A DNA stretch of 47,383 bases. Origin: a virus. This document shows, piece by piece, positions 3,691 through 39,670 of this stretch. A model generated the notes under the pieces. That model made no database searches. It saw only the letters and a list, made by a program, of their open reading frames with translations, and was not told where the DNA came from. How positions within the stretch are numbered: position 1 is the stretch's first letter; each line of letters begins with the position of its first letter. Both the position numbers and the translations under genes were made by a program. The DNA lies in IMG/VR virus record IMGVR_UViG_3300010389_000029, positions 1-47,383 of that record; one strand, given 5' to 3'.

Positions 3691-4338
3691 ATGAAAACGC
3701 TTGACGATGTTATTAACGATCCGGTAACCCGGTTTTATTACAACCATAATTTTTGGAAGCACGTTGATGTTCCGTTTAAGGAAGATCCCAATATTTGTTG
3801 GGAATGGGAATCTGTAACCCAAAACAAGGGCTACGGATACTGGGGGCAACACAAGTTTTTGGCGCACAGGATTGCCTTCACCTTGTATCACAACAGACCT
3901 ATTGAGAAAGGAAAAGTGCTTATGCACATTTGTGATAACCCGAGATGCTGCAACCCACATCATCTCCAAGAAGGAACGCAAGCAGAGAACCTGCACGATG
4001 CGGCTTCTAAAGGACGACTTAAAGGACCAGTCAAGCACCTTATCCACCCTGACATACTCCATAAAGCAGCGACTTACCAAATTAACCTTACCCAAGCCGC
4101 CAATGATCTTGGTTGCACTAGAAGATACCTTCTGCATAAGTGCATTAAGTATAGAAACAAACACGGAATACCCCACAGAAGATCCATCAATAAACCCCTT
4201 ACGGAATCTGAAAAAGATTTTATCAGAGAAAATTTCCCAGCTCTTAAAGGAGCGGAAATAGGTAGACGACTCGGACAAGACAGGGCAGTCATCAACAAAT
4301 GGATTAAGCGTATGGGTCTGCGTGATCATTCTAAATAA
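3691..4338 (+). CDS. Free-standing HNH homing endonuclease (HNH_3-type) with C-terminal HTH-like segments
   Basis: Motif HICDNPRCCNPHHLQEGTQAENLHD. The track ORF 3655..4338 starts at TTG and the first ATG is at 3691. It is the only plus-strand gene inside the minus-strand tail operon, and its 3' end overlaps the 3' end of 4331..5335 by 8 nt. Confidence 0.8.
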   Translation: MKTLDDVINDPVTRFYYNHNFWKHVDVPFKEDPNICWEWESVTQNKGYGYWGQHKFLAHRIAFTLYHNRPIEKGKVLMHICDNPRCCNPHHLQEGTQAENLHDAASKGRLKGPVKHLIHPDILHKAATYQINLTQAANDLGCTRRYLLHKCIKYRNKHGIPHRRSINKPLTESEKDFIRENFPALKGAEIGRRLGQDRAVINKWIKRMGLRDHSK

Positions 4339-5335
4339 TTTCAGGCATGCCACCGGCACCCCAGCTTTCAGATTGAATATTCATTGGTTCTACGTTGGAT
4401 TTCCCCTGGTAATGTGTCAGCTCAACCTCCAACAAGCGGATAGCTTCCCCAAAGTATCTGGCTGCTTCACCCACGTTCTGTTGCTCCTCCAGCTGCACTG
4501 CCTTGGCAGCGTTCTTCAGTGCAGGTAAATTGCCCAACACAAACCAATCCGTGTCGCGCCTTACATCGATATGATCCAACTTCACGACGGCTCGCACGAC
4601 TCGCTTGTTAGTAAGGGGATCTCCCGATCCGCACACATACTGAGGGGCATCCCCAAGTCCTGGGATGATGCTTCGTCGATAGTCTGGAAGGGTTTCGTCC
4701 CATTCGTAATAGCCGATCGGCACGACGACTGACTCTCCAGTAACCTTTGACAAATGAACCGGGCCATTCGTAACCGGTTTCTGGACTCCAGTAATTGTAG
4801 TAAATATGTTGCTCGACCCTGTCGGGGTCGTGCTGATGGTAATATATTCCCCGTCAACCCAAGTTCCGTTGTCGAGTGTTCTAATCCAATTCCCGTTTTC
4901 ATCATAACCCTGAACAAGGAGCTTGGCCGATGCACTCTCGGACACTTCGCTGTAAACCCGCAAAGTCGAGGAGAAATCCGTCATGTCAAGGAACACAGGA
5001 GATCTACCACGATCCATTAGTTGCAACTCACTGGAGTTGCCGGTTGTCCTGATGCCAAACCCTGTCTGTAAATACTCAAACCAATTATTCCGAAGTGTGA
5101 TCGGTTGATGGTTAACTGCCAAAGCCTCAATCGAGGCAACCTGCCTCGGCCAAGTCAGGCACCCTTCCGAACTCACACATATCTGATACGTCTGAAAGGT
5201 TCCCCAATACAAACCCTGCATCATGAGACGCTGGTGTGCTTCGTTCACGATCTGCACCAACCTTGTGTCCTCTGGATCAAACCCGAGGAAATCCGGTATG
5301 CGCGATTGCTTTACTTGGCCTAAAGTCAGTTTCAT
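4331..5335 (-). CDS. Virion structural protein (tail or adaptor candidate)
   Basis: 334-aa ORF. Its ATG overlaps the upstream stop (ATGA). Position within the tail gene block. Confidence 0.6.
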   Translation of the reverse strand: MKLTLGQVKQSRIPDFLGFDPEDTRLVQIVNEAHQRLMMQGLYWGTFQTYQICVSSEGCLTWPRQVASIEALAVNHQPITLRNNWFEYLQTGFGIRTTGNSSELQLMDRGRSPVFLDMTDFSSTLRVYSEVSESASAKLLVQGYDENGNWIRTLDNGTWVDGEYITISTTPTGSSNIFTTITGVQKPVTNGPVHLSKVTGESVVVPIGYYEWDETLPDYRRSIIPGLGDAPQYVCGSGDPLTNKRVVRAVVKLDHIDVRRDTDWFVLGNLPALKNAAKAVQLEEQQNVGEAARYFGEAIRLLEVELTHYQGKSNVEPMNIQSESWGAGGMPEII

Positions 5336-6072
5336 CCTACGTAGTATTGTCTAGCGGTTCGTTTGATGAAGTAAACACCATAGTAAGGAGGCATGTTGTT
5401 GTGTGCCTGACCGGTAGTTCCCGTCATTGATGTTGTTATTACTCCTGCTTTATTAAAGTTGTTGTAACTAGCGTTATTGGTGTGACCACTATTTTCATGC
5501 ACTGTACCGTCCGCTAAACCCGAAGGATCTGAAGTAGACGCCGGTCCTGCTTGAGCACGATAGTAAGCTTCTCCCAAGTGCCCGTGATCCGGTAGTTGGT
5601 CTGAGGTCAATGTAACAGTTTCAGAACCACCGGTGGTGCCAGAATCTACCTCCGTCCCAGAAGGCAATGTACCTGCCCCCAACGGAAACTTGCCTGACAG
5701 ATCCGTGTCGATTTCCCAGAAAGGACCGCTGGAAGACCTCACTGCTCCAGCCGTTCCACCATCCAAAGTGGCTACACTATCCGCAGAACCCTTGTATATC
5801 TGTAGTTTAGTGTCCCCGGCAGGGATATTGTGCGGCCATACCCATGCACCGTTGTAAAAAATATACTGACGGACAGGTGCGCCAGAGGATGTCTTGATCC
5901 ACAACTTGTCGCGGTCATCAGCCCCAGGCGCAGTTTCTGAAATAATATACTTCAGGGATCCGTCCAGAACGGTGCCTGTCATTTGCGACACCAAGTCAAC
6001 AGCGTGTTCTTGCAAGTCTTCGTAACAAGACTTACTCAACGTCCCCATGGTTAAGGAAATATTCGTGCTCAT
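5332..6072 (-). CDS. Tail fibre protein with a phage tail-collar-type C-terminal domain
   Basis: C-terminal GSETVTLTSDQLPDHGH...GQAHNNMPPYYGVYFIKRT resembles the tail collar domain. Start overlaps the upstream stop. Confidence 0.7.
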   Translation of the reverse strand: MSTNISLTMGTLSKSCYEDLQEHAVDLVSQMTGTVLDGSLKYIISETAPGADDRDKLWIKTSSGAPVRQYIFYNGAWVWPHNIPAGDTKLQIYKGSADSVATLDGGTAGAVRSSSGPFWEIDTDLSGKFPLGAGTLPSGTEVDSGTTGGSETVTLTSDQLPDHGHLGEAYYRAQAGPASTSDPSGLADGTVHENSGHTNNASYNNFNKAGVITTSMTGTTGQAHNNMPPYYGVYFIKRTARQYYVG

Positions 6073-7871
6073 AATGTAATCTCAGGGTATTCCGTTAACG
6101 GACACCCCGAATCTGTTGTCTGTGTTCCTGTCGGTCTGTCAGGGTAGATGTCTTCGCTAATTACCTCTGCGAAAAACCTCATCGAGTCTACCTGCGCGTA
6201 ACCTACGCCCTTTAAACGAAACTGAAAAGTATTCCCTAAGTTGCCAGGAGTCTTGGTATCAGTCTTGGCAGACGTATTGGGAGGGTTGCCGAAGCTACGT
6301 CGTGGACGATACGACGGTCTGTTCTCCGTCAGACTAATGCAGTTGGCGAAGTCACTGTTGCAGAACTTCGTTTTTGCATTCTCACTCCAAGTCGCCCATT
6401 GATTCCAAACCAAGGATTCATCCGGTCTGGTGTAAAGAGTGAAGTCAACTTGTCCCCGCACATTGTTCAGCCAAGCCTCAAACCGATCCAAGCGTTTCAT
6501 CTCATACGGGGAATCAAAGCTTGTGCTTCGGGTTTCGATATACCATTCGATTGGCAGCTCATCAGTGCCGTTGTAGTCAGTAGTCGAATTCGGATCCAGT
6601 TCCCACAGCTCAATGTCAGTGCCGTTTACCGCAAAGGCAAAGCACCGGTCTCTCTGACCAAACTGACCTCGGACTAAATGCAGAAAATCAAGCCCAGTCC
6701 ATATGCCGTCATACGCCAAGGGAGACTTTACCCGTAAGCCGCTGATCGGATTAAAGTCCATGCTTGCAATGGCCTTGTGGATTACACCACGACTGGACTT
6801 ACGCGAAACACAGGTATGCAGGAGACGGTTGTCAAACTCTACCGCACTGGAGTGCTTGAGCAAAGTAGGTGACTCGTTCTGCAACGCACGGTTGATTTCG
6901 TTACTTAAAGGCGTTACCCCAGGCGATCCAAAATCCCTACGGGCGTATATAAGTGACCGTATTCCGTCTCGGGATCTGAAATACAAGTCGCCATTCACGT
7001 TCAGAGGTGTGAACGGACCAACCGCACCACTCGGGGCTACCAGTCTCTGGACCGGATAGGACAGGTTCTTCCACTGAGTTCTGTCTGTAGGAACACTCGT
7101 CGCAAAAGCACTGTTGCCGGTAAACACGATCAGCTCCCCATCCCCAAGAGCCGTATCCAACGATCCCATAACCTGCATGGCTGTTATGCCACCGGCGTTG
7201 GATGGAGTCGAAAACGCACCACCTTCGTTCAGGTAATCGTTCTCGGTAAACTTTAAAACCGCATCCCTGCGGTTCAAGTCAGGGTTACCGCTGGAAGAAC
7301 CAACCAAGTCACCCGCTGCATACTCAGAAAATCTTCCTACCCACAAACGACCGTTGCCATAAGTGGATACCGCTCCAGTCGGAACCTCATCACTTAAGGC
7401 CGCAGACCGTCGTGCCTCCGCACGATTGTATATGATCGGCGCACTCTGCCCGTCCTGAATAATCATCCAGTCTTCGGCTTGCTGGAAAGTGACCACATCC
7501 TGATAAGTGCTGTTCCTGCCATCCGTAGGCGTGATGTCGGTGACCTTATAGGATTGGATGGGGTTGATCGCAAACAGTCGTCCACCAATAGAACACACAA
7601 TCTCAGACTGATCACCTACGGACCTAAAATACCCTGCCCCTTGGAAATGGGCCGTCGCAAGTTGGAAGTTATTCCGGTCATCCTCGGACGCAAAGGTAAG
7701 CGTTCGCTTGCGAAGCCCAGGTCGAGGACCAACCGCACCACCACGAACAACACAATTAGCCGCCCAAGAAAGCTGGTTGGGCTGAAGCAACTTCGGTCGA
7801 AGATTGCTGTCAACCCCTCCTTCAAAGGACACATAAGCATCCCCCTGTAATTTGGACTTGGACTGGGCCAT
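6069..7871 (-). CDS. Large tail protein (nozzle/tubular-type candidate)
   Basis: 600-aa ORF. TAATG overlap with the upstream gene. Position between two fibre genes. Confidence 0.55.
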   Translation of the reverse strand: MAQSKSKLQGDAYVSFEGGVDSNLRPKLLQPNQLSWAANCVVRGGAVGPRPGLRKRTLTFASEDDRNNFQLATAHFQGAGYFRSVGDQSEIVCSIGGRLFAINPIQSYKVTDITPTDGRNSTYQDVVTFQQAEDWMIIQDGQSAPIIYNRAEARRSAALSDEVPTGAVSTYGNGRLWVGRFSEYAAGDLVGSSSGNPDLNRRDAVLKFTENDYLNEGGAFSTPSNAGGITAMQVMGSLDTALGDGELIVFTGNSAFATSVPTDRTQWKNLSYPVQRLVAPSGAVGPFTPLNVNGDLYFRSRDGIRSLIYARRDFGSPGVTPLSNEINRALQNESPTLLKHSSAVEFDNRLLHTCVSRKSSRGVIHKAIASMDFNPISGLRVKSPLAYDGIWTGLDFLHLVRGQFGQRDRCFAFAVNGTDIELWELDPNSTTDYNGTDELPIEWYIETRSTSFDSPYEMKRLDRFEAWLNNVRGQVDFTLYTRPDESLVWNQWATWSENAKTKFCNSDFANCISLTENRPSYRPRRSFGNPPNTSAKTDTKTPGNLGNTFQFRLKGVGYAQVDSMRFFAEVISEDIYPDRPTGTQTTDSGCPLTEYPEITL

Positions 7872-9043
7872 TAGGCTAGGCTCTTAGCGGTTTGATACCA
7901 AACATAAGTGGAACCGTCGAATATAGCTTTTAGGGTTACGGACTCGTAGTATTTACTCCCGCTTCCACCTAAAGTATCAGGCACATCGGCAGAACTCCCC
8001 GGACCATGGACTATGAATCCCGCAGAGTCTGTTCCCAAAAAAGTTATCGTGTTAAAGTTATTGTTTACGATAGTCAAATACTTTGAAGCGGATGCAGATG
8101 CATAACTATTCGCAGGCGGTAAAGTGAGGCTCACAAGAGCTACAGCCCCAGTTAGTAAAACAGTAACGCCAGGATTATCATCATCAGGAACATCCGTTAA
8201 AGTTAACGTGGAAGCCTTAGCAACACGAACAAGCTTATCTCCAGGCACAATAGTCGTGGACGTGTGAGGTACCCAAGCAGCGGTAGTCCCGTTGGACTGA
8301 AGTATCGTATCAGGACCACCAATAGGCAACCGGTTAGCTTGACCGCTAGTCCCGCCAACAAGCAAGTCGCCCCGAGTTGTCATGGGACTCAAGGCATCAA
8401 ACCCAGCCAACGCAGTAGACTCCCCTGTCCCTCCATTGGCTATAGGAACCTGACCTGTGATACTGGTGTTGGTGCCACCGAGATCAACCGCACGGTAGAT
8501 CAAACCCAGAGTCTCTCCTGAGTCTGCATGCAGAATCTGGTTGTCAGGTCCAGCCCCAAGGGGCGCGTTCGCTGACCCAGTGTGACCACTCAAGTCTCCT
8601 TTCAGAGAGTTAATCGCCACAGTAGGGTTAGGGTAAGTGCCACTCAGATCACCGCCAGCACTTCCCGACAAAGATCCAGCCGGTCCTTGAACTCCACCAG
8701 CACATACTTTACTGGTCGCTGAAATCGTCGTGGACGGTGCTGCGTTTGCTGGGTATGCACCGGAAGCCGTATCTTCCAGATTACGCAACACAACAGTCGT
8801 CCCATCAGTGATAGTGACCACGGCCATATAGCCAGCAGTCTGAACATACAGAGTCTGACCAACACTCATCCAGTCGGTGTTCCCAACCGACACAGACACA
8901 GTGGCCAACTCAGCTGGCATTAGGAAGGATCCTGTTACCGTAGTGTAAGCGTTCTGGCCATTAGTGCCATTGGTGCCGTTTGTTCCATCAGCACCCCTCG
9001 GGCCAGGGGCTATAACGATGTTTGTTTGTTCTGGGCAGCTCAT
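7871..9043 (-). CDS. Tail fibre with a short collagen-like G-X-Y tract
   Basis: N-terminal GPRGADGTNGTNGTNGQN (six G-X-Y triplets). The rest is Gly/Thr/Ser-rich and fibre-like. Confidence 0.65.
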   Translation of the reverse strand: MSCPEQTNIVIAPGPRGADGTNGTNGTNGQNAYTTVTGSFLMPAELATVSVSVGNTDWMSVGQTLYVQTAGYMAVVTITDGTTVVLRNLEDTASGAYPANAAPSTTISATSKVCAGGVQGPAGSLSGSAGGDLSGTYPNPTVAINSLKGDLSGHTGSANAPLGAGPDNQILHADSGETLGLIYRAVDLGGTNTSITGQVPIANGGTGESTALAGFDALSPMTTRGDLLVGGTSGQANRLPIGGPDTILQSNGTTAAWVPHTSTTIVPGDKLVRVAKASTLTLTDVPDDDNPGVTVLLTGAVALVSLTLPPANSYASASASKYLTIVNNNFNTITFLGTDSAGFIVHGPGSSADVPDTLGGSGSKYYESVTLKAIFDGSTYVWYQTAKSLA

Positions 9044-13991: not shown

Positions 13992-14477
13992 TTAACCTTC
14001 AAGAACTTGCGTGTCTTGGTCTTTTACACTAGGCGTTGATAGGACGTTAGAAATGTGCGTCACATTTAGTGTTTTGGGAGAATCCTGATTGCCCATGCCT
14101 AAAATCTTTTGCACCTTCTCAACTATTTGTAAGCCCTTGAGTTGCAAATCACTACGTTGAATCATGCTTGGAATGTCGTCAGGAATTGGGGTAGTTTGCA
14201 GACGTTTTAGAACATTGCCAGCGTCTGAAAACATCTTGAGTGCGTAGGAATCGAGACGAGAAGATAAGCAGGCGGTCTCGTCGGTCAAGACCTCTTTAGT
14301 CTGGCTTAAAGCTTGGTTGAAAGCCGGATCACGACGGGATAGAGATAGAAGCTTGCTACGAACTGAACTGGGATTCACATCGAAGTATCTGGCGATTTCG
14401 GCTTGTTTTAAACCTTTGTTGACTAATTCCAGCAAGATATTGGGTTCAATCTTTTTCTGATTATTCGTCGTCCTCAT
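13992..14477 (-). CDS. HTH DNA-binding protein (regulator or small-terminase-like; undecided)
   Basis: N-terminal LLELVNKGLKQAEIARYFDVNPSSVRSKL helix-turn-helix. 161 aa. Confidence 0.6.
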   Translation of the reverse strand: MRTTNNQKKIEPNILLELVNKGLKQAEIARYFDVNPSSVRSKLLSLSRRDPAFNQALSQTKEVLTDETACLSSRLDSYALKMFSDAGNVLKRLQTTPIPDDIPSMIQRSDLQLKGLQIVEKVQKILGMGNQDSPKTLNVTHISNVLSTPSVKDQDTQVLEG

Positions 14478-17229: not shown

Positions 17230-17402
17230 AAACACGATTGAAACACCCCGGCTGGAAACCACTGCCAGAACAAACCGAGTGGAACCAAGCAACCCAAGCG
17301 GGTCCGCTCTGGGACCGTTACTGCAACTACGTGGACGCCATGGAGGAAATCGGCGCACCCCACGACAAAATAAAAACCTTCGACCAATGGATAAACTCAT
17401 GA
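17226..17402 (+). CDS. Small hypothetical protein (58 aa)
   Basis: MKTRLKHPGWKPLPEQTEWNQATQAGPLWDRYCNYVDAMEEIGAPHDKIKTFDQWINS. ATGA overlaps at both ends. Confidence 0.5.
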   Translation: MKTRLKHPGWKPLPEQTEWNQATQAGPLWDRYCNYVDAMEEIGAPHDKIKTFDQWINS

Positions 17403-17587
17403 ACAAAACAGAAAGACAAGCGGTATCAGCCGCATACGCACTCGCCCTGATGGGATCTCAAATGAACTCCGTCAAGGAGTTGAAACAGGTAGCAGCAGCA
17501 ATTGCCCACAACTTGGAACCCCACATGGATTCCAACTTGGCAGAAGCAGCATACAATCAGTTTACCGGCAAATCAGATGAAAAGTAA
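17399..17587 (+). CDS. Small hypothetical protein (62 aa)
   Basis: Internal ATG (MNKTERQAV...) of track ORF 17279..17587, coupled to the previous ORF. Confidence 0.5.
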   Translation: MNKTERQAVSAAYALALMGSQMNSVKELKQVAAAIAHNLEPHMDSNLAEAAYNQFTGKSDEK

Positions 17588-18026
17588 GGGGGACAAAATT
17601 GGCTCCAGATTTGTCCAATTGACAATTGGACTGATATGTGCCTCCCCAACGGCCAAAGCCGGGATCGTCGCACTGACGATCCTGGCCGAGGCCCGAGGTG
17701 AGGGACCGGATGGAATGACCGCAGTAGCAGCATGCATATACCAGCGATCCCTTAACCGAAAAATAACACCGGATCAGGTTTGTCTTCAGCCTAAGCAGTT
17801 CTCCTGTTGGAACGGCAAGAGCGAAGCGGATCTGGAGCACCTGCTAAAACTGCCCCAAGCCAAAACCGCACTCTGGCTCGAAGCAAACCTACACAGGCTA
17901 AACCGAGCCAAAATAGGCTACGCTGACCATTACCACGCTGACTACGTCAATCCCTACTGGGCAGACAAAACCAAAAAAACCTTTACCATAGGCAAACACA
18001 TCTTCTACCGTCTAAATACCCAATGA
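17577..18026 (+). CDS. SleB/Hydrolase_2-type cell wall hydrolase (endolysin) with a signal-anchor-like N-terminus
   Basis: LAEARGEGPDGMTAVAACIYQR...ADHYHADYVNPYWA matches the SleB-type hydrolase pattern. Probable start MKSKGDKIGSRFVQLTIGLICASPTAKAGIVALTIL. Confidence 0.75.
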   Translation: MKSKGDKIGSRFVQLTIGLICASPTAKAGIVALTILAEARGEGPDGMTAVAACIYQRSLNRKITPDQVCLQPKQFSCWNGKSEADLEHLLKLPQAKTALWLEANLHRLNRAKIGYADHYHADYVNPYWADKTKKTFTIGKHIFYRLNTQ

Positions 18027-18031
18027 CATGT

Positions 18032-18135
18032 AGCGTCTGGGGGAGTGCCGGTCACATGACTACGACTCACGCCGAGGTTTTTTCTAGCATTAGGTTCTCC
18101 TCCGCGAATGGCTTTGCAACCCATCCCCAGACGCT
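18032..18135. other. Element bracketed by an 11-bp perfect inverted repeat (agcgtctgggg / ccccagacgct) with an 82-nt interior containing a T6 run
   Basis: Read directly. It is intergenic, between the endolysin and the RHH gene. Confidence 0.6.
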
Positions 18136-18170
18136 TGCCTTCCCAAAATATTTATGTTAAACAAACCCAC

Positions 18171-18359
18171 ATGGGACGTTTAAAAAAAGAAATTACCCGA
18201 AGTGCACGAATCGGACTCCGAATCACCGAAAATCAGAAAACCTTATGGCAAGAAGCAGCAGATCAAGAAGATTTGACCCTAAGCAAGTGGATCGCAAAGA
18301 CATGCGATCAGTTTATGTCGCCAGTCCATACACAATCGGACCCTGTGCGCGTAATGTAA
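18171..18359 (+). CDS. Ribbon-helix-helix (CopG/Arc-like) DNA-binding protein
   Basis: MGRLKKEITRSARIGLRITENQKTLWQEAADQEDLTLSKWI fits a beta-strand plus two-helix RHH layout. Internal ATG of track ORF 18108..18359. Confidence 0.5.
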   Translation: MGRLKKEITRSARIGLRITENQKTLWQEAADQEDLTLSKWIAKTCDQFMSPVHTQSDPVRVM

Positions 18360-18625
18360 GCACGCAACTCGACGCATTTCATAGGCTCATGGACATGGGC
18401 CTACTCCCTTTCGCACCTCTCCTGACCCATTACGCCGAAATCCACCGCCAAAGACCTTGGGAGGACTGGATTCACAACTACTGCCTGCCATGGGTCAGAA
18501 AATGTGACATGGTCCTCCGACTGGAGGGACTCTCCATCGGAGGTGACCTGGAGGTGCAGCAAGCCCACCGACTCAACATACCCGTTTATTTCGGCTGGCA
18601 GGATTTGGAAGATGGTTTAGGGTAG
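18302..18625 (+). CDS. DUF1937 / nucleoside 2-deoxyribosyltransferase-like protein
   Basis: N-terminus MRSVYVASPY and length are typical of that family. It overlaps the RHH gene by 58 nt in another frame. Confidence 0.45.
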   Translation: MRSVYVASPYTIGPCARNVSTQLDAFHRLMDMGLLPFAPLLTHYAEIHRQRPWEDWIHNYCLPWVRKCDMVLRLEGLSIGGDLEVQQAHRLNIPVYFGWQDLEDGLG

Positions 18626-18721
18626 GATCTACATGCCCCGTTCCTGAGCCTGCGTGATGCCTGTGGCTTAGTTTATAATCGTAGCAGGTAGACAACAGCG
18701 GACAGAATAGATCCTACCCTA
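18618..18721. other. Element bracketed by a 14-bp perfect inverted repeat (tagggtaggatcta / tagatcctacccta) with a 76-nt interior, between convergent genes
   Basis: Read directly. An inner CCTGC/GCAGG stem is present. The stop codon of 18302..18625 lies in the left arm. Confidence 0.6.
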
Positions 18722-18731
18722 TACGGTCATC

Positions 18732-18932
18732 CTACACAAACCTCCTCTGCTGCCTCATAGCCTGTATGTAAAACCACTGATCTATGACCTCCTCCTCCAT
18801 GCGGTCGAGGAGATCCGGTTTCTCCCACAGGTTACCCCCGTGCTCCTTCTGACCTGCAACATATTTCAAGGTCGCCTTGTCCATGAATGCCTTCACGGCA
18901 TCCTCCATCGATTGTTTTTGTTCGTTCGTCAT
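18732..18932 (-). CDS. Small hypothetical protein (66 aa)
   Basis: Internal ATG (MTNEQKQSMEDAV...) preceded by AGGAG. The track ORF extends to 18965. Confidence 0.55.
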   Translation of the reverse strand: MTNEQKQSMEDAVKAFMDKATLKYVAGQKEHGGNLWEKPDLLDRMEEEVIDQWFYIQAMRQQRRFV

Positions 18933-18984
18933 ATCGCTCCTAAATGCCAGAAATAGGCTTCTCATGACACTTGTACACTTGTCG

Positions 18985-19085
18985 CCTATTTTGTTTAGTA
19001 CTATTATTTTTTTTATTTTTCATTTTTCACTGATCAAAAATGGCCCTTTTTTGATCAGTTAATTTTCTATTTTTTATTTTTTCAG
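18985..19085. other. AT-rich tract containing an 11-bp perfect hairpin (ctgatcaaaaa-tggccct-tttttgatcag, 19030..19058) with two GATC sites. Candidate DNA unwinding element.
   Basis: Read directly. Confidence 0.55.
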
Positions 19086-19106
19086 ACTCCGAGGAGTATA
19101 AGAGGT

Positions 19107-19285
19107 TAGTGTCATAAGTGTCATGCATGGGTTAACCCCTTCACCCTGCACCACTTAAGGCATGACACTTCTTTCCCCCCAAGTGTCATAAGTGTCATCA
19201 GAATAAGCCCCGCTAATGACCCCTCATAAGCAAAAGCATGACACTTATGACACTTACATGACACTTGTTTTTGCCCAAGTGTCAT
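19107..19285. repeat. Iteron/operator cluster of 9-mers: AAGTGTCAT at 19116, 19181, 19190 and 19277, plus variant TAGTGTCAT at 19107. The inverse ATGACACTT is at 19162, 19238, 19247 and 19258, with a tenth copy at 18964.
   Basis: Read directly. Two inverted pairs share a 10-nt spacer (19162..19189 and 19258..19285). Confidence 0.85.
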
Positions 19286-19309
19286 GCTTTGTGGCACAAA
19301 GTGAACCCC

Positions 19310-21391
19310 TCAGAACGGATCCTTTCCACCCCAACTCATAGGCTCGATCTTCCAGTTTCGGCACGACATGCTCCGCTCTTGGGACACTCTATAAGTCCCA
19401 TCATCCATCGTCGCCAACTTCCCAAGCATTCTCCCGAGGGCCATAGGTGACCGGATCCAGTTGATGGAGGCATATTGCTTGAGGGTTTCGTATATATAAG
19501 CAGCGGATCCTTCCAAAGGTTCTGTGTTTCCAATGAAATACAAATCCAAAATCCCTTCCAATTGCCCCTCCAACGACTCACCATGCACTAGGCGGTTGAC
19601 CTTCGGGTGGACGTAACCTTTCACGCCGTAACGGCAATCGACCAAGTCAGGGTCAGTCTCAAACTCATCCACCCAAGCACAGAAATCATCCAAGTCAGGC
19701 TCGATCAAGTCCCAAACCTCCAGGCCAGGTTCAAAGGTCCAGCCAGGTGTCCCGCACCAGAACAGCATCAGCTTGTCCTTGTTGTCATCATCCACCGAAG
19801 GCAAAGTCCTTATGCTGGAGGGGGTTGTGTTTACACTACCAGTGAACCTCCAGATTGGTTTCAGTGTTACCGGTTCCCCGTATTTAGCGTGCAATGGCAC
19901 TGAGACATTAGCCACGATTTCTTTAATCGATCCAGTCAGTCGATGCCGTGCTTTCCAATCATCGAGGATAGTAGCGTCACTAATAGTCAGGTGTTCAGCT
20001 CTCCACAGGTCAGAATTAAAGGTCGTTAGCCCTTTGATCCAAGCCTGTGGATCTGCTTCACGACCACCGATACACGCAGTTATAATCTTCTGGCCCAAGG
20101 TCTTACCCAACCCAGTGCCTCCTACAAAGAAAATTGCTTGCCCTGGGACGTTCTTCGTGGGATCGGCCAACGACTTCCGGGCTTGTTTCAACCACGGGAT
20201 GAAATACTCCATTTGTTCTGCGCCCAACAGGTTGCTGAAGAACTGTTCTGGCACGGTGCCTGTTCTGGCAGTTCCTTTGCGGAGGGTGTAGCCCTCGGTT
20301 ACAAGAACCTGAAGCGGACCTTCTTCGCGATAGCCAATGGGCCTTCCACATAAAGGACCGGCATAGGATACCATGCGATTCTGTTCCACTGTGGCTTGGG
20401 AGTTACTGATCTGGGCGGCGGTTGCGCCGAAGAACACCAGTTGGTTGCGCCAAGACTCCAAGGTCAACTTGGTGAAGCGACCGGAGCCATTCAGATCGAC
20501 ATACCACTTGGCTCCGTCGGTATAGGAACGACGAACGACCAACTCGGCTTCCTCACTGACCACGTCGCCACGTTCCACGGCTCTCTTGGCACTGGATATA
20601 CCGTCACGGAGAATCCCTGCCTTGATCTTCAGCAGGGACCGGACTTTGTCCTGTAGCATCGCTGCGCTGGGCGACGAGGCGAATCGCCCGAGGCACTTGC
20701 AGAGTTTCCCGAAGACCTCTGGGGAGGTGACGTCCAGTTGTTCGTGTTGGGCAGTCAACAACCTATCGAGCATGGTGACCTCGTCGGAGTCGGGTTCGAT
20801 GCGGGGTAGATTAAACCACTCGGATGCGAACCTACCTCCGAGTTCCTCGCGCATGTCATCTGCGCCTTTGGGTCCGTTCCATGGCATACGAACCAACTGG
20901 AACGGAGGCAACTTGCCTACCATACGAGCCGTTGCGGTGTAGAAGTCTGGATTGAGCAGGGTGTCACTGTCCCCGATCCACTCGATCTTCTGGGGTTGGA
21001 AGTAAGCCAAGGCTTCAGCGAGTTCTGGATGGACGGATCCTCCCTCCTGCCAGCCATAGAAGCCTGAAATACCCAAGGTCGGGAAACCTGCTTCAGTTAG
21101 AGCGATCGCTTTGAATTCACCTTCCACGATGCCCAAGGTTTGAACTCCGCGCTCGATGCCGACAGGTATGTATATGTGAACCCCTGATCCTTGGGCTTGG
21201 CTGTATTTCATATCCCCGGAGGGAGACTTGAGTCTGAGCCGGTGGAAACCGGACTCTGATCCATCGAGGTTATGGTAGGGTATCAGTATACCGGCTACGG
21301 ACTGGCCGATGAGTTTCTTCGCTTCATCGGGTGCTATTTCTCGAACACCATTTGCCGCCAGAACGGCTTCACTTATGCCTGGTCTTTTCAT
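19310..21391 (-). CDS. Bifunctional DNA primase/helicase (Toprim-like N-terminus plus P-loop NTPase C-terminus)
   Basis: IVEGEFKAIAL and WIGDSDT Toprim-type acidic motifs. Walker A FFVGGTGLGKT. The ATG at 21391 overlaps the upstream stop (ATGA); the track start at 21478 is probably too far upstream. Confidence 0.8.
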   Translation of the reverse strand: MKRPGISEAVLAANGVREIAPDEAKKLIGQSVAGILIPYHNLDGSESGFHRLRLKSPSGDMKYSQAQGSGVHIYIPVGIERGVQTLGIVEGEFKAIALTEAGFPTLGISGFYGWQEGGSVHPELAEALAYFQPQKIEWIGDSDTLLNPDFYTATARMVGKLPPFQLVRMPWNGPKGADDMREELGGRFASEWFNLPRIEPDSDEVTMLDRLLTAQHEQLDVTSPEVFGKLCKCLGRFASSPSAAMLQDKVRSLLKIKAGILRDGISSAKRAVERGDVVSEEAELVVRRSYTDGAKWYVDLNGSGRFTKLTLESWRNQLVFFGATAAQISNSQATVEQNRMVSYAGPLCGRPIGYREEGPLQVLVTEGYTLRKGTARTGTVPEQFFSNLLGAEQMEYFIPWLKQARKSLADPTKNVPGQAIFFVGGTGLGKTLGQKIITACIGGREADPQAWIKGLTTFNSDLWRAEHLTISDATILDDWKARHRLTGSIKEIVANVSVPLHAKYGEPVTLKPIWRFTGSVNTTPSSIRTLPSVDDDNKDKLMLFWCGTPGWTFEPGLEVWDLIEPDLDDFCAWVDEFETDPDLVDCRYGVKGYVHPKVNRLVHGESLEGQLEGILDLYFIGNTEPLEGSAAYIYETLKQYASINWIRSPMALGRMLGKLATMDDGTYRVSQERSMSCRNWKIEPMSWGGKDPF

Positions 21392-21957
21392 GCTGGCACC
21401 TCCTCCAGCTGCTGGATATTGGCGTTTTTCTTGGCGGCGCGATATTTGCGAGTCTGCTTGTTTTGACATTCGCAGCAATTAGATCGGGTTCCGAGTGTCT
21501 TACTGCGGTCCTTGTGGAATTGACCCAGTGGCTTGACTGTATCGCAGTCAGGACAGCGTTTGAACCCCACAGGTGTTGGTTCTAAATACAAATCACCTAA
21601 CTTGGATACACCATGCCCTGCGTTGCAACTGTGGCAAATGAAGCACATTGTGCCATCCAGGTTGTGCTGGAGTGAAATAGTTGATCCCCTTCTATTATCA
21701 GCTCCCGCTTTCCACCGCATTTGTTGTCCGCATGACGGGCATTTTCCTAATTCACCATGTTCGTTCAGACAGGGCCGGAGCATCGTTTCGCACTCCTCCC
21801 AAGACGGGACAACCTTGCCCCTCCGTTGCGCCACGTCCCGCATTCGGTTGAACCGATAATGCTTTTCGCAGTACCATGTCGAGCCAAGTCCATTTGCTTT
21901 GTTGATTCCGTCGTCATCACAACCTTTGCGGCTGCATATTCTGTGTGTAGTTTTCAT
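21388..21957 (-). CDS. Cys-rich zinc-finger / HNH-like nuclease candidate
   Basis: SLQHNLDGTMCFICHSCNAGH and several CxxC pairs. Translationally coupled to the primase gene. Confidence 0.5.
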   Translation of the reverse strand: MKTTHRICSRKGCDDDGINKANGLGSTWYCEKHYRFNRMRDVAQRRGKVVPSWEECETMLRPCLNEHGELGKCPSCGQQMRWKAGADNRRGSTISLQHNLDGTMCFICHSCNAGHGVSKLGDLYLEPTPVGFKRCPDCDTVKPLGQFHKDRSKTLGTRSNCCECQNKQTRKYRAAKKNANIQQLEEVPA

Positions 21958-21972
21958 GATCTTTCGTAAGTA

Positions 21973-22052
21973 GAGCGCGGACCCTTTGTTTCTACAGGTA
22001 GTTCAGCGACCTTGTGGTGAGTTCTCCTCACCTACCATTCGGATCCGCGCTC
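21973..22052. other. Structured intergenic element: 9-bp outer stem (gagcgcgga / tccgcgctc) enclosing the hairpin GGTGAG-ttctc-CTCACC
   Basis: Read directly, between the RuvC-like and HNH/Zn genes. Confidence 0.5.
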
Positions 22053-22057
22053 AAAAG

Positions 22058-22516
22058 TTATTTACTGAGTCTGGCAAGGTCCATCGCCCTGCCAAGTGGA
22101 TGATTTTGAAAAGCCCACTCCAATAGTAGCCATGCATCGCAGGTTGCTTTCGTAACTCGGCCCAATTTACCGAATCGACGCTTGGCCACTTTGAACAGAG
22201 CTGACTTTCGTTTTTGATAGTTTCGTTCGTAGATCTTCAGTGGGAACTGCCACGTCCTTGGTTCCACGTAGGTCACTGGAACTTCCAAAGTGGCCAGGAT
22301 CCCTTCCCATTGGCCGAGGTTACGACCAAACTCAAACACGCATGCGTGTGTAAGGGTCGCGGTCCCTCTGACCTTTTCGCAGAATGCGTGTGTCAATGGA
22401 TATTGCTCCAGTTCCGCTGACATCTGCTCCACTGACCGGAATGGTATCGGTCGGACCATGTTCACGGATGCGACGACACACCCACCGGACTTGCCTGGAT
22501 CAATTGCTACTATCAT
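22058..22516 (-). CDS. RuvC-like Holliday junction resolvase
   Basis: N-terminal MIVAIDPGKSGG and a ~150-aa length are typical of phage RuvC-type resolvases. Confidence 0.7.
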   Translation of the reverse strand: MIVAIDPGKSGGCVVASVNMVRPIPFRSVEQMSAELEQYPLTHAFCEKVRGTATLTHACVFEFGRNLGQWEGILATLEVPVTYVEPRTWQFPLKIYERNYQKRKSALFKVAKRRFGKLGRVTKATCDAWLLLEWAFQNHPLGRAMDLARLSK

Positions 22517-22712
22517 CGATCAAAGGCCAGAGAGCCTGCTTGTCCACGTCCTCAAGTTTATCCGCGAAGAAATGGGCGGCTTGTTTGGTTTCGTCCTTCG
22601 TAGCCCCGCATTGATCTAGCAGGGCCAGCGCGAGGTTGATCATCTCGGTGTTATCCATTTGAGCTACGGCGTGACCGTAGATTACAGGATCTGTTTGTTC
22701 GGTGTATGTCAT
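22500..22712 (-). CDS. Small hypothetical protein (70 aa)
   Basis: Internal ATG (MTYTEQTDPV...) overlapping the upstream stop (ATGA). Confidence 0.5.
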   Translation of the reverse strand: MTYTEQTDPVIYGHAVAQMDNTEMINLALALLDQCGATKDETKQAAHFFADKLEDVDKQALWPLIDDSSN

Positions 22713-23065
22713 ATTTTGTTTTTGTAGAATTGCAGTTGTTTTTTTGCCTTTTGCAATAGGATCGGGTAGTCGAAATTGTTTGGGAACTGTTTGGTCTTTT
22801 TTTCCCATTCGTCCACCCGTTTTCTCCATTTACCAATCTGTTCGAGAAGATGATTGTTGACCACTTTTTTGATAGACGTTGGTCTGCTGTCAAATAGATC
22901 ATCCTCATTCTCACGCTCATTGCTGTATTGCCCTTTATCCCACGTTGGATCGACGGGTATGTAAAAGTCCGTCAAATCCTCAAATGTTTCTTGCGGCCAG
23001 AAGTCTTTCAACTCAGGCCCGAATTTCCATATACATTTCCCACATTGAACTCTTCGATTTATCAT
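22709..23065 (-). CDS. Hypothetical protein (118 aa)
   Basis: Internal ATG (MINRRVQCGKCIW...) overlapping the stop of the DUF3310-like gene (TAATG). Confidence 0.5.
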   Translation of the reverse strand: MINRRVQCGKCIWKFGPELKDFWPQETFEDLTDFYIPVDPTWDKGQYSNERENEDDLFDSRPTSIKKVVNNHLLEQIGKWRKRVDEWEKKTKQFPNNFDYPILLQKAKKQLQFYKNKI

Positions 23066-23265
23066 TACTTTCGTCTTTCTATTTCTCGTTGGATATACCA
23101 CTTTGCTTTTTCTAGGTCTTCTATTGCATTGTTCTTCAGGTCGGCACGCCAAAGATATTTGATGGCGTTTCCGATACAAAATCCCATATGTTCTGTTATT
23201 TGAATGCACTCGATCCCGCTGGGGTGTTCGGTGTAATGTTTTGGGTGATTTACTGGATCATTCAT
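23065..23265 (-). CDS. DUF3310-family phage protein
   Basis: HPKHYTEHPSGIECIQITEHMGFCIGNAIKYLWRADLKNNAIEDLEKAKWY matches the DUF3310 pattern. Confidence 0.7.
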   Translation of the reverse strand: MNDPVNHPKHYTEHPSGIECIQITEHMGFCIGNAIKYLWRADLKNNAIEDLEKAKWYIQREIERRK

Positions 23266-23348
23266 AATAAAAGAATCTGCCTACTGATTCATGCGGGTAT
23301 AAAGTTGACCCTGTCCGTAGATCTCCTACGGCACCACAACGGCAGAAT

Positions 23349-25154
23349 TTATTTGTCATACACTGATGCTATGTGTGCGTCAACGCCCAAAGGCATGTCG
23401 GGTAGGGCTGGGTGACGTTTGCTCATTTCCTCTGTGACAAATTCCAAGGCGTCTTTGGCTTGGTCCTCTGGCACTTCGCAGATTAACTCATCGTGGACGT
23501 GCCATGCTGTTCGGATACCGCCTCGGTCGATTCGTAGCATGGCGGCGGCGAACACATCTCGGGCAGTGGCCTGAACGACGTTCTCAAACAACTTGGACCC
23601 CCAGAACCATTCACGAATATTCTTCCCCCGTTGGACACAGGCGTTTAGACCTGTCTTGCCGTTGACTGTTTGTTTGGCAACGTCGAAATATCGAAGCTTG
23701 CGTCCGGTTGGCAGGGTGACGACTAGCGAACCTTCCCCTGCGCTTTTCTGTAAGCTCTTTTCTAGTTTGTCCTTTACGCTATTTTTGAACCCGTGATCCA
23801 GCATGTTCCACATGGATACGAGCTTGGTGTTTGCGGATCGGTAATCGGATACGATTTTGCGGGACTCATCCTCTGCCAGGTCCATCCCAAACATCTTGGC
23901 GTAATCACGAAACCGGACATGCGACATACCATATCCCAAACCAAGCACGGCGATCTTGCTCCGTTGCCGCAGGTCGTTATCGACTTCCTTCAATGGACGA
24001 GGGTCTTTGTAACCGAGAGCTTTTCTGGCATATGCTTCGTATATATCCATGCCTTTTCCAACAAGCTCAAGGAACTCTGTATCACCGGCTATGGCTGCGG
24101 CGCATCGAGGTTCGATGTTGGATAGATCCGCAATGATAAACTTATGCCCGTCCCGAGGAACGAACAGATCTCGGACGGAAGCCCCAAACAACTCCCCTTT
24201 GGTGAGGTTCTGCATGTTGATCCCAGCGTCACCGGCCCAGCGACCTGTTACCCTGGCTCCGCAGTATTTCATGGAGAAGTGCAGTACGCCGCCTGTGTCC
24301 AACCGGTTCTGGATCGTTTGGAGGGTAGATAAGTGTTTGTTCAGGCGGCGTAGCTGCACAAACGCTTCCATGTAGGGAAATCTGTCAGCATTCTGTTGGC
24401 TCCACAGTGCCCACACTGGGTCATCGGCACTGGTGGTTTTAGGAAGGTTACCTGCACCATCAGCACATAGCTGGGTGCGAAGGGCTGCTTGGCTGAGAGC
24501 TGGTTTATCTGCTCTCCAAGGTATTTGATCGAGCAACTGGATCTGATGTGTCTGGACGGTTGCCAGGTAATCCTCCAGCAGTCTGGTGTTGATCTGCACT
24601 CCGTAGTCACCTTGTTCTACGGTCAACCCGGCCAAGTCCCATTCGTCCTGGGGGAGTTTATTATGAAACTTTGTGTATAACTCGTAGCACAATTCTGAGT
24701 CTGTCAGGGCGTAGTCACACAGGATCTGGTATCGTTCCGGTGTCAGCTGATCGAAGTGTTTCCCTGACATTTGTGTGCGGACGGTTTTGTCCGGTGTTTT
24801 ACCGAGGAGCACTTTGGCTGCGTTACCGAGATCCCTACTTACTTGTAGGTAAGCTGGTATGGCCGTTGTATCCCGCCATTTGGAAGGTCTCACGTCGTCG
24901 GGTATAACTCCCTGATCCCACAGACGATTGAGCACCCACCGGTCGAACTGCATGTTATGGGCGACCCAAGTCGCCCCTCGGAGTTGTTTCCAAGGGGCGT
25001 CTTGGGGTTTGCCAACGAAACGGACATCTGGTCCTACGATGCTGACCATACCGCAGTAGTAGTCTGGGTGACGGGTGTATGCCTCGGCCCCGAGTTCTTT
25101 CACTGAGACATTTTTATCGTAGTATGTCTCCGTATCGATGGCGTATGTTTTCAT
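23349..25154 (-). CDS. Family A DNA polymerase with a 3'-5' exonuclease domain
   Basis: Exo I AIDTETYY. Motif A IIADLSNIEPR. Motif B RQRSKIAVLGLGYG. Motif C VHDELICEV. Probable start MKTYAIDTE at 25154. Confidence 0.9.
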   Translation of the reverse strand: MKTYAIDTETYYDKNVSVKELGAEAYTRHPDYYCGMVSIVGPDVRFVGKPQDAPWKQLRGATWVAHNMQFDRWVLNRLWDQGVIPDDVRPSKWRDTTAIPAYLQVSRDLGNAAKVLLGKTPDKTVRTQMSGKHFDQLTPERYQILCDYALTDSELCYELYTKFHNKLPQDEWDLAGLTVEQGDYGVQINTRLLEDYLATVQTHQIQLLDQIPWRADKPALSQAALRTQLCADGAGNLPKTTSADDPVWALWSQQNADRFPYMEAFVQLRRLNKHLSTLQTIQNRLDTGGVLHFSMKYCGARVTGRWAGDAGINMQNLTKGELFGASVRDLFVPRDGHKFIIADLSNIEPRCAAAIAGDTEFLELVGKGMDIYEAYARKALGYKDPRPLKEVDNDLRQRSKIAVLGLGYGMSHVRFRDYAKMFGMDLAEDESRKIVSDYRSANTKLVSMWNMLDHGFKNSVKDKLEKSLQKSAGEGSLVVTLPTGRKLRYFDVAKQTVNGKTGLNACVQRGKNIREWFWGSKLFENVVQATARDVFAAAMLRIDRGGIRTAWHVHDELICEVPEDQAKDALEFVTEEMSKRHPALPDMPLGVDAHIASVYDK

Positions 25155-25807
25155 CAGATAACCTCGTTTTCGATCCACTCACGGATTTTGGCATCGGTGG
25201 CTCCCTGATTGGTCACAACAGGAACATACCATTTGTTTTTCCCGTTGTCCTTCTGCTCGGAAGACAAGGCCCATGTCAGTGCATACGGAATACCACCGGC
25301 GTTTTTACCGTTGGTTGCGGTGAAGATCCGTTTGGCGTTGTTGTATGCCGTGGATTTGAATGTGTAGACGCATTTGACGTAGCCTTGTCCGTTGAACTCG
25401 TAGTGGGCGTGTTCCAAGTCGATTGGAACCAGCAGAACGAGGTCACATCGTGGGCTAAACCTTGCCCCATTGCCGTTCTCCCATTTCAAAACAGCTCCGT
25501 CGGCGCGAGCATCCTTCTCGGAGTTCCAGCGTCGTGGCATGTCGTCGCTGCCATACTCAACATCCTCCTCATAGTATTTGTGCATACTAAGCACATACAC
25601 TGTGTGCGTCTCAAACTTCTTACCAATCTGAACCTGGCGATCGTATACGAAGGATCCATTTTCGAATTCCTCCATATTACTGACTGCCTGAACCAATGAC
25701 AAACGTGGGATGGATACGTCCTCTTTACCCCAGTCTCCAGTCATGTAGCCTTTGGTGTCGGATTGTGTTGCGAGTTCTGTGTTCTTATTAGATAGATCTA
25801 ATTCCAT
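25154..25807 (-). CDS. Hypothetical protein, possible ssDNA-binding protein by position (DUF2815-like slot)
   Basis: 217-aa ORF between the PD-(D/E)XK nuclease and the DNA polymerase, as in the known nuclease-SSB-PolA phage module. The sequence itself is not diagnostic to me. Confidence 0.4.
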   Translation of the reverse strand: MELDLSNKNTELATQSDTKGYMTGDWGKEDVSIPRLSLVQAVSNMEEFENGSFVYDRQVQIGKKFETHTVYVLSMHKYYEEDVEYGSDDMPRRWNSEKDARADGAVLKWENGNGARFSPRCDLVLLVPIDLEHAHYEFNGQGYVKCVYTFKSTAYNNAKRIFTATNGKNAGGIPYALTWALSSEQKDNGKNKWYVPVVTNQGATDAKIREWIENEVI

Positions 25808-39032: not shown

Positions 39033-39616
39033 ACGTTTGTAGTTTTGATCTCATCTATTTTTATGCATTTAAGTTCCAGAAGTCGCTGGGCGGTTTTAGT
39101 AGATACCCAGTCCTCGTCATCAAAATAAATAATCCCCTTCGCAACAACACGGTCCACCCACATAGTGACATCCCTAGTAGAGTCCCACTGACTGTGGTTT
39201 CCGTCGATGTGCAAAATGTCTACGTTACCGTCAATCTCATAGAATGACTGGACCGTGGACATCTTCATCAGTTTGACGTAGGTGGATATTTCCAATGACT
39301 CGCATGTAGAGACGCATTCATGTCGTATGGCATCGTAATCCACAGATTTCCACCATTGAGCGTTGTCGCCATCATTATTTGCTGTGGCGGCTATGGCACT
39401 CCAAGTATCCACCCCGTAAACCACGCTTTTTGGATTACCTAATTTGGCCAAAGCAAGGCCGAAGGCTATCAGACTTCTACCAGCAAAAACCCCAAGCTCA
39501 ACGCATCTGGTAGCCCTTTGCTTAACGACTGAATCAAATATATGGTTGGCCTTTGCAGGATCACACCATCCGTTCATTTTAGGGACGGCCTCAAGTAGTT
39601 TTGTCTTATAATCCAT
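39005..39616 (-). CDS. Class I SAM-dependent methyltransferase (TylF/CmcI-like sugar O-methyltransferase type)
   Basis: CVELGVFAGRSL SAM-binding loop and ILHIDGNHSQWDST motif. The start MDYKTKLL at 39616 directly abuts the terminator U-tract. Confidence 0.65.
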   Translation of the reverse strand: MDYKTKLLEAVPKMNGWCDPAKANHIFDSVVKQRATRCVELGVFAGRSLIAFGLALAKLGNPKSVVYGVDTWSAIAATANNDGDNAQWWKSVDYDAIRHECVSTCESLEISTYVKLMKMSTVQSFYEIDGNVDILHIDGNHSQWDSTRDVTMWVDRVVAKGIIYFDDEDWVSTKTAQRLLELKCIKIDEIKTTNVCGVYRKLG

Positions 39617-39646
39617 AAAAAAGAGGAGGCATACCAATGCCTCCTC
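39617..39646 (-). terminator. Intrinsic terminator after the portal gene (GAGGAGGCA-uuggua-UGCCUCCUC, then U6)
   Basis: Perfect 9-bp stem. The U-tract ends at the methyltransferase ATG. Confidence 0.8.
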
Positions 39647-39670
39647 CACTCAGCGTATTGAGTTATGTAT

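Follow-up and report, generated by a model that had tools for sequence, protein, structure and literature searches.

The alpha protein of P4 carries a Toprim-type primase, and its C-terminal DNA-binding domain recognises short repeats. The Rep and PriRep proteins of the staphylococcal islands (SaPIs) bind, via a C-terminal winged helix, 6-12 short iterons located directly downstream of rep, and in SaPI origins an AT-rich region is flanked on each side by two or more iterons, which run in opposite directions (PMC9371898; PMC7581432). In SCCmec, the direct repeats bound by the D5-type helicase Cch2 are located in the intergenic region that immediately follows the helicase gene (PMC7581432). Here, we describe a locus of this kind in a stretch of viral DNA of 47,383 nucleotides (nt), i.e. 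positions 1 to 47,383 of IMG/VR virus record IMGVR_UViG_3300010389_000029, which is referred to as the window throughout. Judged from sequence comparisons, the segment 18964-19285 is probably the replication origin of this phage, with the phage-encoded primase-helicase as the protein that would recognise it; 25 nt separate the end of the primase-helicase gene from the nearest repeat copy.

The comparisons involve six close relatives for which genomic context was available (L001-L005 and L010; primase-helicases 56-98% identical). The gene for the primase-helicase and the parts of the locus are as follows (window coordinates):

19310..21391, minus strand: primase-helicase gene, 693 amino acids (aa) from ATG 21391, stop codon 19310-19312.
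19313..19612, minus strand: C-terminal 100 residues (594-693) of this protein, a predicted winged helix and the proposed iteron reader.
19334..19393, minus strand: wing plus two following residues (667-686), with differences to L001 at residues 675, 676, 681, 685 and 686.
19162..19285, no strand assigned: outer iteron array, two like-built units of an inverted pair (10-nt spacer) plus tandem copies.
Outer unit A: 19258-19266 (minus)/19277-19285 (plus), with 19238-19246 (minus) and 19247-19255 (minus).
Outer unit B: 19162-19170 (minus)/19181-19189 (plus), with 19190-19198 (plus).
19107..19124, plus strand: inner tandem pair TAGTGTCAT-AAGTGTCAT, abutting the AT-rich tract on the gene side.
19083..19106, minus strand: semi-conserved box CCTCTTATACTCCTCGGAGTCTG between the last iteron pair and the A-tract, containing the -10-like TATACT.
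18981..19090, no strand assigned: AT-rich tract, 75% AT overall, the proposed DNA unwinding element.
19029..19059, no strand assigned: hairpin/palindrome with a perfect 12-bp stem, a loop of 7 nt and two GATC sites; its centre, 19044, coincides with the dyad of the iteron pairs on either side.
18964..18980, minus strand: far-side iterons, the exact ATGACACTT at 18964-18972 plus the degenerate TGTACACTT at 18972-18980, which keeps the ACACTT half.

The locus fills the gap between the stop codon of the primase-helicase gene and the start codon (ATG 18932) of a small open reading frame (ORF). Nine exact copies of AAGTGTCAT or its reverse complement ATGACACTT plus one variant are present, all of them within the 322 nt from 18964 to 19285. 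Read on the plus strand, AAGTGTCAT starts at 19116, 19181, 19190 and 19277, the variant TAGTGTCAT at 19107, and ATGACACTT at 18964, 19162, 19238, 19247 and 19258. No further exact copy exists in the remainder of the 47,383 bases, while chance predicts ~0.36 exact copies per genome when both strands are considered (2 x 47383/4^9). The 7-mer core AGTGTCA occurs ten times at the locus and three times in the rest of the genome. An eleventh, degenerate copy, the above-mentioned TGTACACTT beside the 18964 copy, matches at 6/9 positions. The copies form tandem pairs at 19107/19116 and 19181/19190 and a triple at 19238/19247/19258, with spacings of 9 and 11 nt in the latter. An earlier note on this DNA, which had been made from the sequence alone, listed these copies and their positions as well as the direct pairs and the direct triple, and all of them were found as described. 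It also attributed an identical 10-nt spacer to the two inverted pairs, which is correct for the length of the spacers but not for their sequences. The outer units A and B lie 96 nt apart, and the grammar of the outer array recurs in L001, L002, L003, L004, L005 and L010. The inner pair 19107-19124 faces the oppositely oriented pair 18964-18980, and both are equidistant from the centre of the hairpin. On the far side of the AT-rich tract a motif, AGTGTACAAG (window 18970-18980), is kept in four phages irrespective of the iteron word (L001 ~6420, L002 ~6325, L003 ~6330); it retains the AAGTG half of the iteron and may represent a degenerate copy or a separate site.

The AT-rich tract noticed beside the repeats proved to be the AT maximum of the genome: the 100 nt from 18987 to 19086 are 81% AT, compared to 70% for the next-ranking window of this size. 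AT content reaches 84% at 18985-19028 and 81% at 19060-19090, i.e. on either side of the hairpin. The tract is strand-asymmetric, being T-rich on the plus strand and A-rich on the coding strand of the helicase. An A-rich tract occupies the same place in every close relative, and a single nucleotide difference to L001 was found in 19000-19099. The hairpin in its centre had been described as 11 bp long with two GATC sites; the hairpin and both sites exist, but the perfect stem measures 12 bp. As single-stranded DNA it folds with -9.7 kcal/mol (z = -5.6), a value that none of 200 shuffled sequences equalled. However, neither the hairpin nor its GATC sites could be upheld as features of the whole family: they are kept in L001, the closest relative, and absent from L002-L005 and L010. 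Because of this restriction to L001 the hairpin is not a family-wide component, and hairpin and GATC sites are a clade-specific embellishment rather than a core part. A function of the hairpin as terminator of the primase-helicase operon was likewise rejected, because its T-run is on the opposite (plus) strand. Genome-wide, GATC is found 281 times versus ~184 expected from base composition, and a DNA methyltransferase-like gene is present at 39005-39649. The box next to the A-tract, with the pattern CTTATACTC...GAGTC, is seen across seven aligned loci that have different iterons (window, L001-L005, L010) and could be a priming site, a loading site or a promoter remnant. A search of the window against Rfam returned no structured RNA.

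The primase-helicase probably starts at ATG 21391, and the stop at 19310, as given by the earlier note, was confirmed. In the AlphaFold2 model (predicted local distance difference test, pLDDT, of 87; 19 sequences) the domains are ordered as N-terminal DnaG-type Toprim primase, D5-type superfamily 3 (SF3) helicase with the Walker A motif GGTGLGKT, and C-terminal winged helix. Searches of Pfam, PHROGs and NCBIfam with the protein gave sub-threshold matches only (DUF5906, 21.6 bits versus a cut-off of 27.6; phrog_849), a sequence search of the PDB gave no match, a scan of IMG/VR with the single protein for close relatives in viral contigs found none, and an IMG/VR profile scan found partial N-terminal matches only. 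Metagenomic homologues (n = 27) were obtained, some of which carry DUF3854 (Toprim-like), DUF5906 (D5-type helicase) or VirE_N. Foldseek aligned the model with the helicase region of NrS-1 (3e-13), with SaPI PriRep1 bound to dsDNA (7pds, 1.7e-7) and with the SaPI5 primase-helicase (7ola, 1e-5); further matches were vaccinia D5, MPXV E5, ASFV PrimPol and SCCmec Cch (5dgk), and the N-terminus matched the DnaG RNA-polymerase (Toprim) domain (5guj, 2.8e-7). By its predicted structure the protein belongs to the self-loading SF3 primase-helicases, known members of which bind iterons just 3' of their own gene. The predicted secondary structure of the C-terminal domain (CTD), helix-helix-strand-helix-helix-strand-strand, follows winged-helix order, and when modelled alone the domain matched almost exclusively winged-helix DNA binders (PadR/LmrR, CtsR-DNA, ORC1-DNA, Cdt1, RepE). 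A winged-helix fold class of the CTD is likely from these models, which place the proposed recognition helix at residues 649-661 and the beta-hairpin wing at residues 667-684.

Comparison with the SaPI system revealed several likenesses. The iterons lie directly downstream of the ORF encoding the initiator-helicase, as they also do in the six close and most of the distant relatives examined; opposed iteron pairs are placed across an AT tract, although the second far-side copy in the window is degenerate (6/9); and an SF3/D5-type helicase is combined with a predicted C-terminal winged helix (weak CTD matches), as in SaPI5, where a primase is fused as well. The protein model matches both SaPI structures, 7pds and 7ola. 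However, the window iterons comprise 9 bp versus 5-6 bp in SaPIs, and nine copies are on the gene side and about two on the far side, with units 96 nt apart, whereas SaPIs have about half of their copies on each side. A phmmer search against the whole PDB, including 7pds and 7ola, was empty, and the fold alignments show 10-14% identity. The primase domain of the window protein is DnaG/Toprim-like, and the window represents not a satellite but a tailed phage of 47 kb that encodes a DNA polymerase A itself. SaPI-type initiators bind their iterons specifically and melt the origin without ATP; the counterpart of this in the window is co-variation only, as detailed below.

P4 alpha resembles the modelled window protein in uniting primase, SF3 helicase and a C-terminal DNA-binding domain in a single polypeptide, and in the P4 record the region directly 3' of alpha holds ten 8-mer "type 1" repeats, which occur in both orientations (annotation: crr 4291-4590; alpha 4636-6969 on the minus strand). 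In contrast to the single cluster of the window, which includes the AT-rich tract, P4 needs two cis elements, ori and crr, which have their repeats in common and are 4.5 kb apart. Moreover, no significant sequence similarity to P4 alpha is detectable (BLASTP E > 4; hhalign probability 12%), and the window protein has no match to an NCBIfam P4-family model, a name borne only by the very distant homologue P0027. In pRN1, the origin is also located 3' of the gene of its initiator ORF904, which consists of primase, SF3 helicase and winged helix, but it is formed by a 100-nt stem-loop instead of iterons and the primase is an archaeo-eukaryotic prim-pol, whereas the hairpin of the window is short and not family-wide. 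SCCmec Cch2 shares the position of its site just 3' of its own helicase gene, but it uses only three 5-nt iterons, its primase is a separate protein pair, and the element is not a phage. Iteron plasmids (RepA/RepE/pi) differ in having direct iterons of 17-22 bp and Rep_3-type WH1-WH2 initiators, in contrast to the 9-bp repeats in both orientations found here; among the window ORFs that were scanned with Pfam, PHROG and NCBIfam, none matched Rep_3 or similar. In lambda-type phages iterons and AT tract are inside the O gene, whereas the window cluster is 3' of the stop codon. In sum, the locus would work like a SaPI/P4-type origin, but its protein is not a sequence member of either family.

The placement of the repeats is conserved. 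In all six close relatives, a non-coding gap of 290-450 bp directly follows the primase-helicase stop, and in it a short word occurs 8-13 times, in both orientations, followed by an A-rich tract and one further copy. They share the grammar of the units, i.e. an inverted pair with members ~18-20 nt apart plus tandem copies every 9-12 nt, units that recur at intervals of ~66-98 nt, a last tandem pair, the A-rich tract and one far-side copy. The primase-helicase gene is always upstream of the repeats, while the downstream gene varies. The earlier note had suggested looking for conservation of the 9-mer in relatives; placement and layout are kept, but the word itself differs:

Window: AAGTGTCAT
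L001: AAGTGTCAC
L002: AAGTGACGC
L003: mixture of AAGTGTCAT/C and AAGTGACGC
L010: GGGGGAACT
L004: GGAGGGACC
L005: GGAGGGACT

The L003 origin (6087-6250) holds two iteron words, AAGTGTCAT/C and AAGTGACGCG, within one architecture, and L002 holds two copies of AAGTGTCAT (6151-6159, 6343-6351); such mixing of words may reflect hybrid or transitional origins. In L005 a second cluster (6000-7034 versus 7538-8573) was considered as a P4-style combination of ori and crr and rejected. Its inverted arms are 100% and 98% identical and include the 3' end of the primase-helicase gene, and such a fold-back has almost certainly arisen during assembly.

A scan of species-representative genomes retrieved 93 relatives, of which the full-length ones are nearly all from MAGs and genomes of Verrucomicrobiota (Opitutaceae, Pedosphaera, Limisphaerales, Prosthecobacter). 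Fourteen distant loci at ~30% identity were examined, plus L007 and L009. In six distant loci (L014, L016, L023, L007, L009, L015) a minimal form was detected, consisting of a tandem 9-mer pair, a spacer of 90-102 bp and an inverted tandem pair, 35-100 nt past the stop. The AT content of the spacer is 0.52-0.62 there, compared to 0.34-0.48 for the respective locus. Three further loci (L019, L049, L061) have one pair and a lone inverted copy, and the spacer of L019 is not AT-enriched. It is geometry rather than word count that recurs in these distant sequences. In L007 (2658-2996) and L009 (5274-5633), the iteron pairs are contained in small predicted ORFs of 112 and 119 aa, both overlapping the stop of the primase gene; these ORFs are spurious unless the origin is within a gene there. 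In L009, an assembly from a sequencing run, the gene is located beside an integrase and an HTH_17 gene. The distribution of the relatives suggests Verrucomicrobiota as the host phylum and a module that would be common to integrative elements.

The closest relative offered a direct view on the relation between protein and repeats. L001 belongs to the same phage lineage and shares 96% nucleotide identity over window positions 17393-23085. Nonetheless, all ten iteron copies differ in a concerted manner, with (C)ATGACACTT in the window and (G)GTGACACTT in L001, i.e. a T to C exchange plus the flanking base. The far-side copy has switched as well (GTGACACTT in L001), although the intervening AT tract carries only its single difference. 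When 11-nt masks were laid on the iterons, 21 differences were counted at 104 positions versus 18 at 273 positions outside (Fisher P = 2.5e-4). Differences per 100 nt peak at 19100-19399: 15 fall in 19300-19399, whereas most other bins of this size have 0-7, with a maximum of 14. Of the 693 residues of the primase-helicase 11 differ (98% identity), and five of these 11 are among the last 19 residues (hypergeometric P = 3.7e-6), at the positions in and after the wing given above. The 189-aa protein encoded just upstream, another candidate binder, has 1 aa difference and does not co-vary with the sites. Across the family, the sequence of the recognition helix goes along with one half of the repeat word, as follows:

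Helix PMALGRMLGKLA: iteron half AAGTG
Helix PxGLGxxLxxLS: iteron half GTCCCTCC or GTTCCCC
Helix PxHLGHQLAKLA: iteron half TGCGG

The residues of the wing vary together with the other half of the word. Tail and sites are linked as one module, and this holds whether the link has arisen under selection or by recombination.

Conserved placement, co-variation with the CTD and the SF3 kind of the protein support the proposal of the earlier note that iterons and an unwinding element next to the primase-helicase gene constitute an origin. Starting from the observed sequence anatomy, the positional conservation, the co-variation of word and CTD and the fold class of the protein, we infer binding, assembly of a double hexamer, melting and priming from SaPI Rep/PriRep and P4 alpha. 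The winged helix of the CTD would bind the 9-bp iterons; by analogy, their conserved half AAGTG would be read by the recognition helix and their variable half TCAT by the wing. Protomers on the opposed pairs 19107-19124 and 18964-18980 would then build SF3 hexamers flanking the AT-rich tract, with the outer units at 19162-19285 probably aiding recruitment by raising the local concentration or by helping cooperative loading. Melting of the AT-rich tract, in which the central palindrome may extrude, would allow the helicase rings to load on the single strands without a separate loader, and the primers made by the fused Toprim primase would be extended by the phage DNA polymerase A (23349-25178). 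A more far-reaching view, which we put forward tentatively and hold somewhat less probable than not, is that of a natural specificity switch: five substitutions in or after the wing would have retuned the protein from AAGTGTCAT to AAGTGTCAC with all eleven origin sites following, leaving two replicons that do not cross-react in otherwise near-identical Verrucomicrobiota phages; helix and wing would constitute a family-wide code, each reading one half of the iteron, and the outer array would be a crr-like loading enhancer.

Several points weigh against reading the locus as an origin recognised by this protein. The winged-helix assignment derives from topology and from weak fold matches (E 0.1-1, TM score 0.4-0.5), and because of these scores the fold class is likely but not proven; moreover, the CTDs of P4 alpha and SaPI Rep were not in the top 50 of the fold search with the CTD only, so that generic winged-helix matches were obtained but no specific match to either of them. 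The concerted change of the sites could be due to gene conversion or recombination patches rather than selection, and a co-varying protein elsewhere is possible because only ~18 kb of the relative could be compared. Five of the fourteen distant loci do not have the inverted arrangement (L013 and L044 have a single tandem pair only), and counts of exact 8-mers in distant loci do not exceed those in control windows. Binding, melting and initiation are derived by analogy for every member of the family. In comparison to SaPIs with about half of the iterons per side, the distribution around the AT tract is asymmetric, with nine on one side versus one exact and one degenerate copy on the other, and a promoter-like -35/-10 element overlaps the inner iteron pair. 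Finally, cumulative GC skew, proposed by the earlier note as a check, shows no inflection at 19 kb. The curve is monotonic, with detrended extremes at 13.5 and 41.7 kb, and is dominated by transcription-strand bias; since nearly all genes are on the minus strand and the skew is monotonic, this result is not decisive.

Four other explanations were considered. An origin whose protein-DNA complex in addition regulates or terminates transcription into the downstream gene would be compatible with the origin reading, and we regard such a dual role as rather unlikely, yet as the most plausible of the four. The locus takes up all of the space between two genes of the same orientation, an intrinsic terminator is not predicted there for the minus strand, the T-run of the hairpin being on the plus strand, and a transcriptional role is possible because the promoter-like -35/-10 element overlaps the inner iteron pair. 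However, this box is not conserved in L004, L005 and L010. The same element, a sigma-70-like ATGACA-18 nt-TATACT pointing to the small gene, would speak for the alternative raised in the earlier note, i.e. operators for a ribbon-helix-helix (RHH) ORF (18171-18359), a helix-turn-helix (HTH) protein (13992-14477) or another factor, which would control either the small gene at 18932, via its promoter, or read-through from the primase-helicase operon. RHH operators typically are contiguous short repeats in both orientations, and the far-side iteron copy is ~32 nt upstream of ATG 18932. Yet TATACT is not retained in L004, L005 and L010, and promoter-like matches number four versus 2.1 +/- 1.5 expected, which is not significant. 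Where the ten sites have changed, the regulators have not: the RHH ORF region has no more than two nucleotide differences to L001 and HTH residues 15-54 are identical, and therefore neither protein explains the switch. In addition, the downstream gene differs in L002, L003 and L005, with a deoxynucleoside monophosphate kinase gene at its position in L002 and L003 and a different gene in L005, while the repeats always follow the primase-helicase gene. Whether the RHH ORF is a real gene is doubtful, as the ORF (18108-18359) overlaps the DUF7768 gene (18245-18625) by 115 nt and no gene is called at its position in the 96%-identical relative. The operator explanation does not stand up to these data and is very unlikely.

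A role of the repeats as a P4 crr-like cis enhancer or in copy control (handcuffing), bound by the primase-helicase with initiation taking place elsewhere, also appears unlikely, if less so than operators. It is favoured by P4 itself, in which the ten 8-mers directly 3' of alpha are crr and not ori, the annotated ori being ~4.5 kb off. Distant relatives with the minimal design do without the outer units (19162-19285 in the window), which may for this reason be accessory. On the other hand, the first 48 bases of the window equal its last 48, and it therefore represents a closed circular genome of ~47.3 kb, in which no second cluster of the 9-mer or of the 7-mer core exists. Moreover, the AT maximum of this genome lies inside the locus and is flanked by inverted iteron pairs, i.e. 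the complete layout of a SaPI-type origin. Clustered short repeats in both orientations are also known from sites of terminase small subunits and from parC/parS-type centromeres, but a packaging (pac/cos) site or partition centromere is the least probable of the explanations and very unlikely: the large terminase gene (42374-44203) is 23 kb distant, no ParA-, ParB- or ParM-like match was found in 35 ORFs scanned across the genome (11 of them within 13.9-23.3 kb), the phage encodes an integrase, and the sites co-vary with the tail of the primase-helicase. Hence, an origin read by the adjacent primase-helicase is the interpretation that we prefer.

Regarding the surroundings of the locus, one neighbouring feature is as follows:

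18732..18932, minus strand: small ORF of 66 aa downstream of the locus, with start codon ATG 18932 and ribosome-binding site GGAG; a neighbour and not part of the origin.

This ORF had no family match in library searches. Between the ORF (minus strand) and the convergent DUF7768 gene (plus strand) there is a 25-nt inverted repeat (18607-18631/18708-18732; 84% complementary, 76-nt spacer), which could be a bidirectional terminator or another site. Upstream of the primase-helicase gene and on the same strand, a replication module encodes a Holliday-junction resolvase, DNA polymerase A, a DUF2800-type exonuclease, an SNF2-type helicase and the integrase. This module is mosaic between near-identical phages: when window 22058-25178 was aligned with L006 5495-8327, DNA polymerase A was only 87.5% identical with 12 gaps, in contrast to 98-100% for its neighbours, and where the window has the resolvase gene (22058-22516), L006 carries an unrelated gene of 145 aa together with an HNH_3 gene. 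At the closure junction, two perfect tandem arrays are present, one with 3.1 units of 18 nt (1-55) and one with 3.6 units of 15 nt (48-101), and these junction arrays (regions 1-101 and 47329-47383) are located just upstream of a 1038-aa ORF (44200-47316, minus strand). Neither megablast of 17500-21500 against 50,697 deposited phage genomes nor tblastn of the primase-helicase against the phage collection produced a match.

The design is already known from P4, staphylococcal islands, SCCmec and pRN1, and the locus is not a new kind of origin. The data extend this design, in which an initiator-helicase reads iterons situated just 3' of the gene encoding it, to large tailed phages as well as integrated elements from another phylum. 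They provide a concrete candidate for both origin and initiator in an uncultivated phage lineage that is without a relative among the deposited phage genomes. The hosts are probably Verrucomicrobiota, for which, to our knowledge, almost nothing of phage replication biology has been described. The near-identical pair formed by the window and L001, in which changes at ten sites are matched by changes in the wing, offers a natural test for how a winged-helix initiator changes its specificity and bears on the question of how related replicons could avoid cross-talk. If correct, the assignment of iteron halves to helix and wing would mean that initiators of this type follow a recognition code that is modular and can be read.

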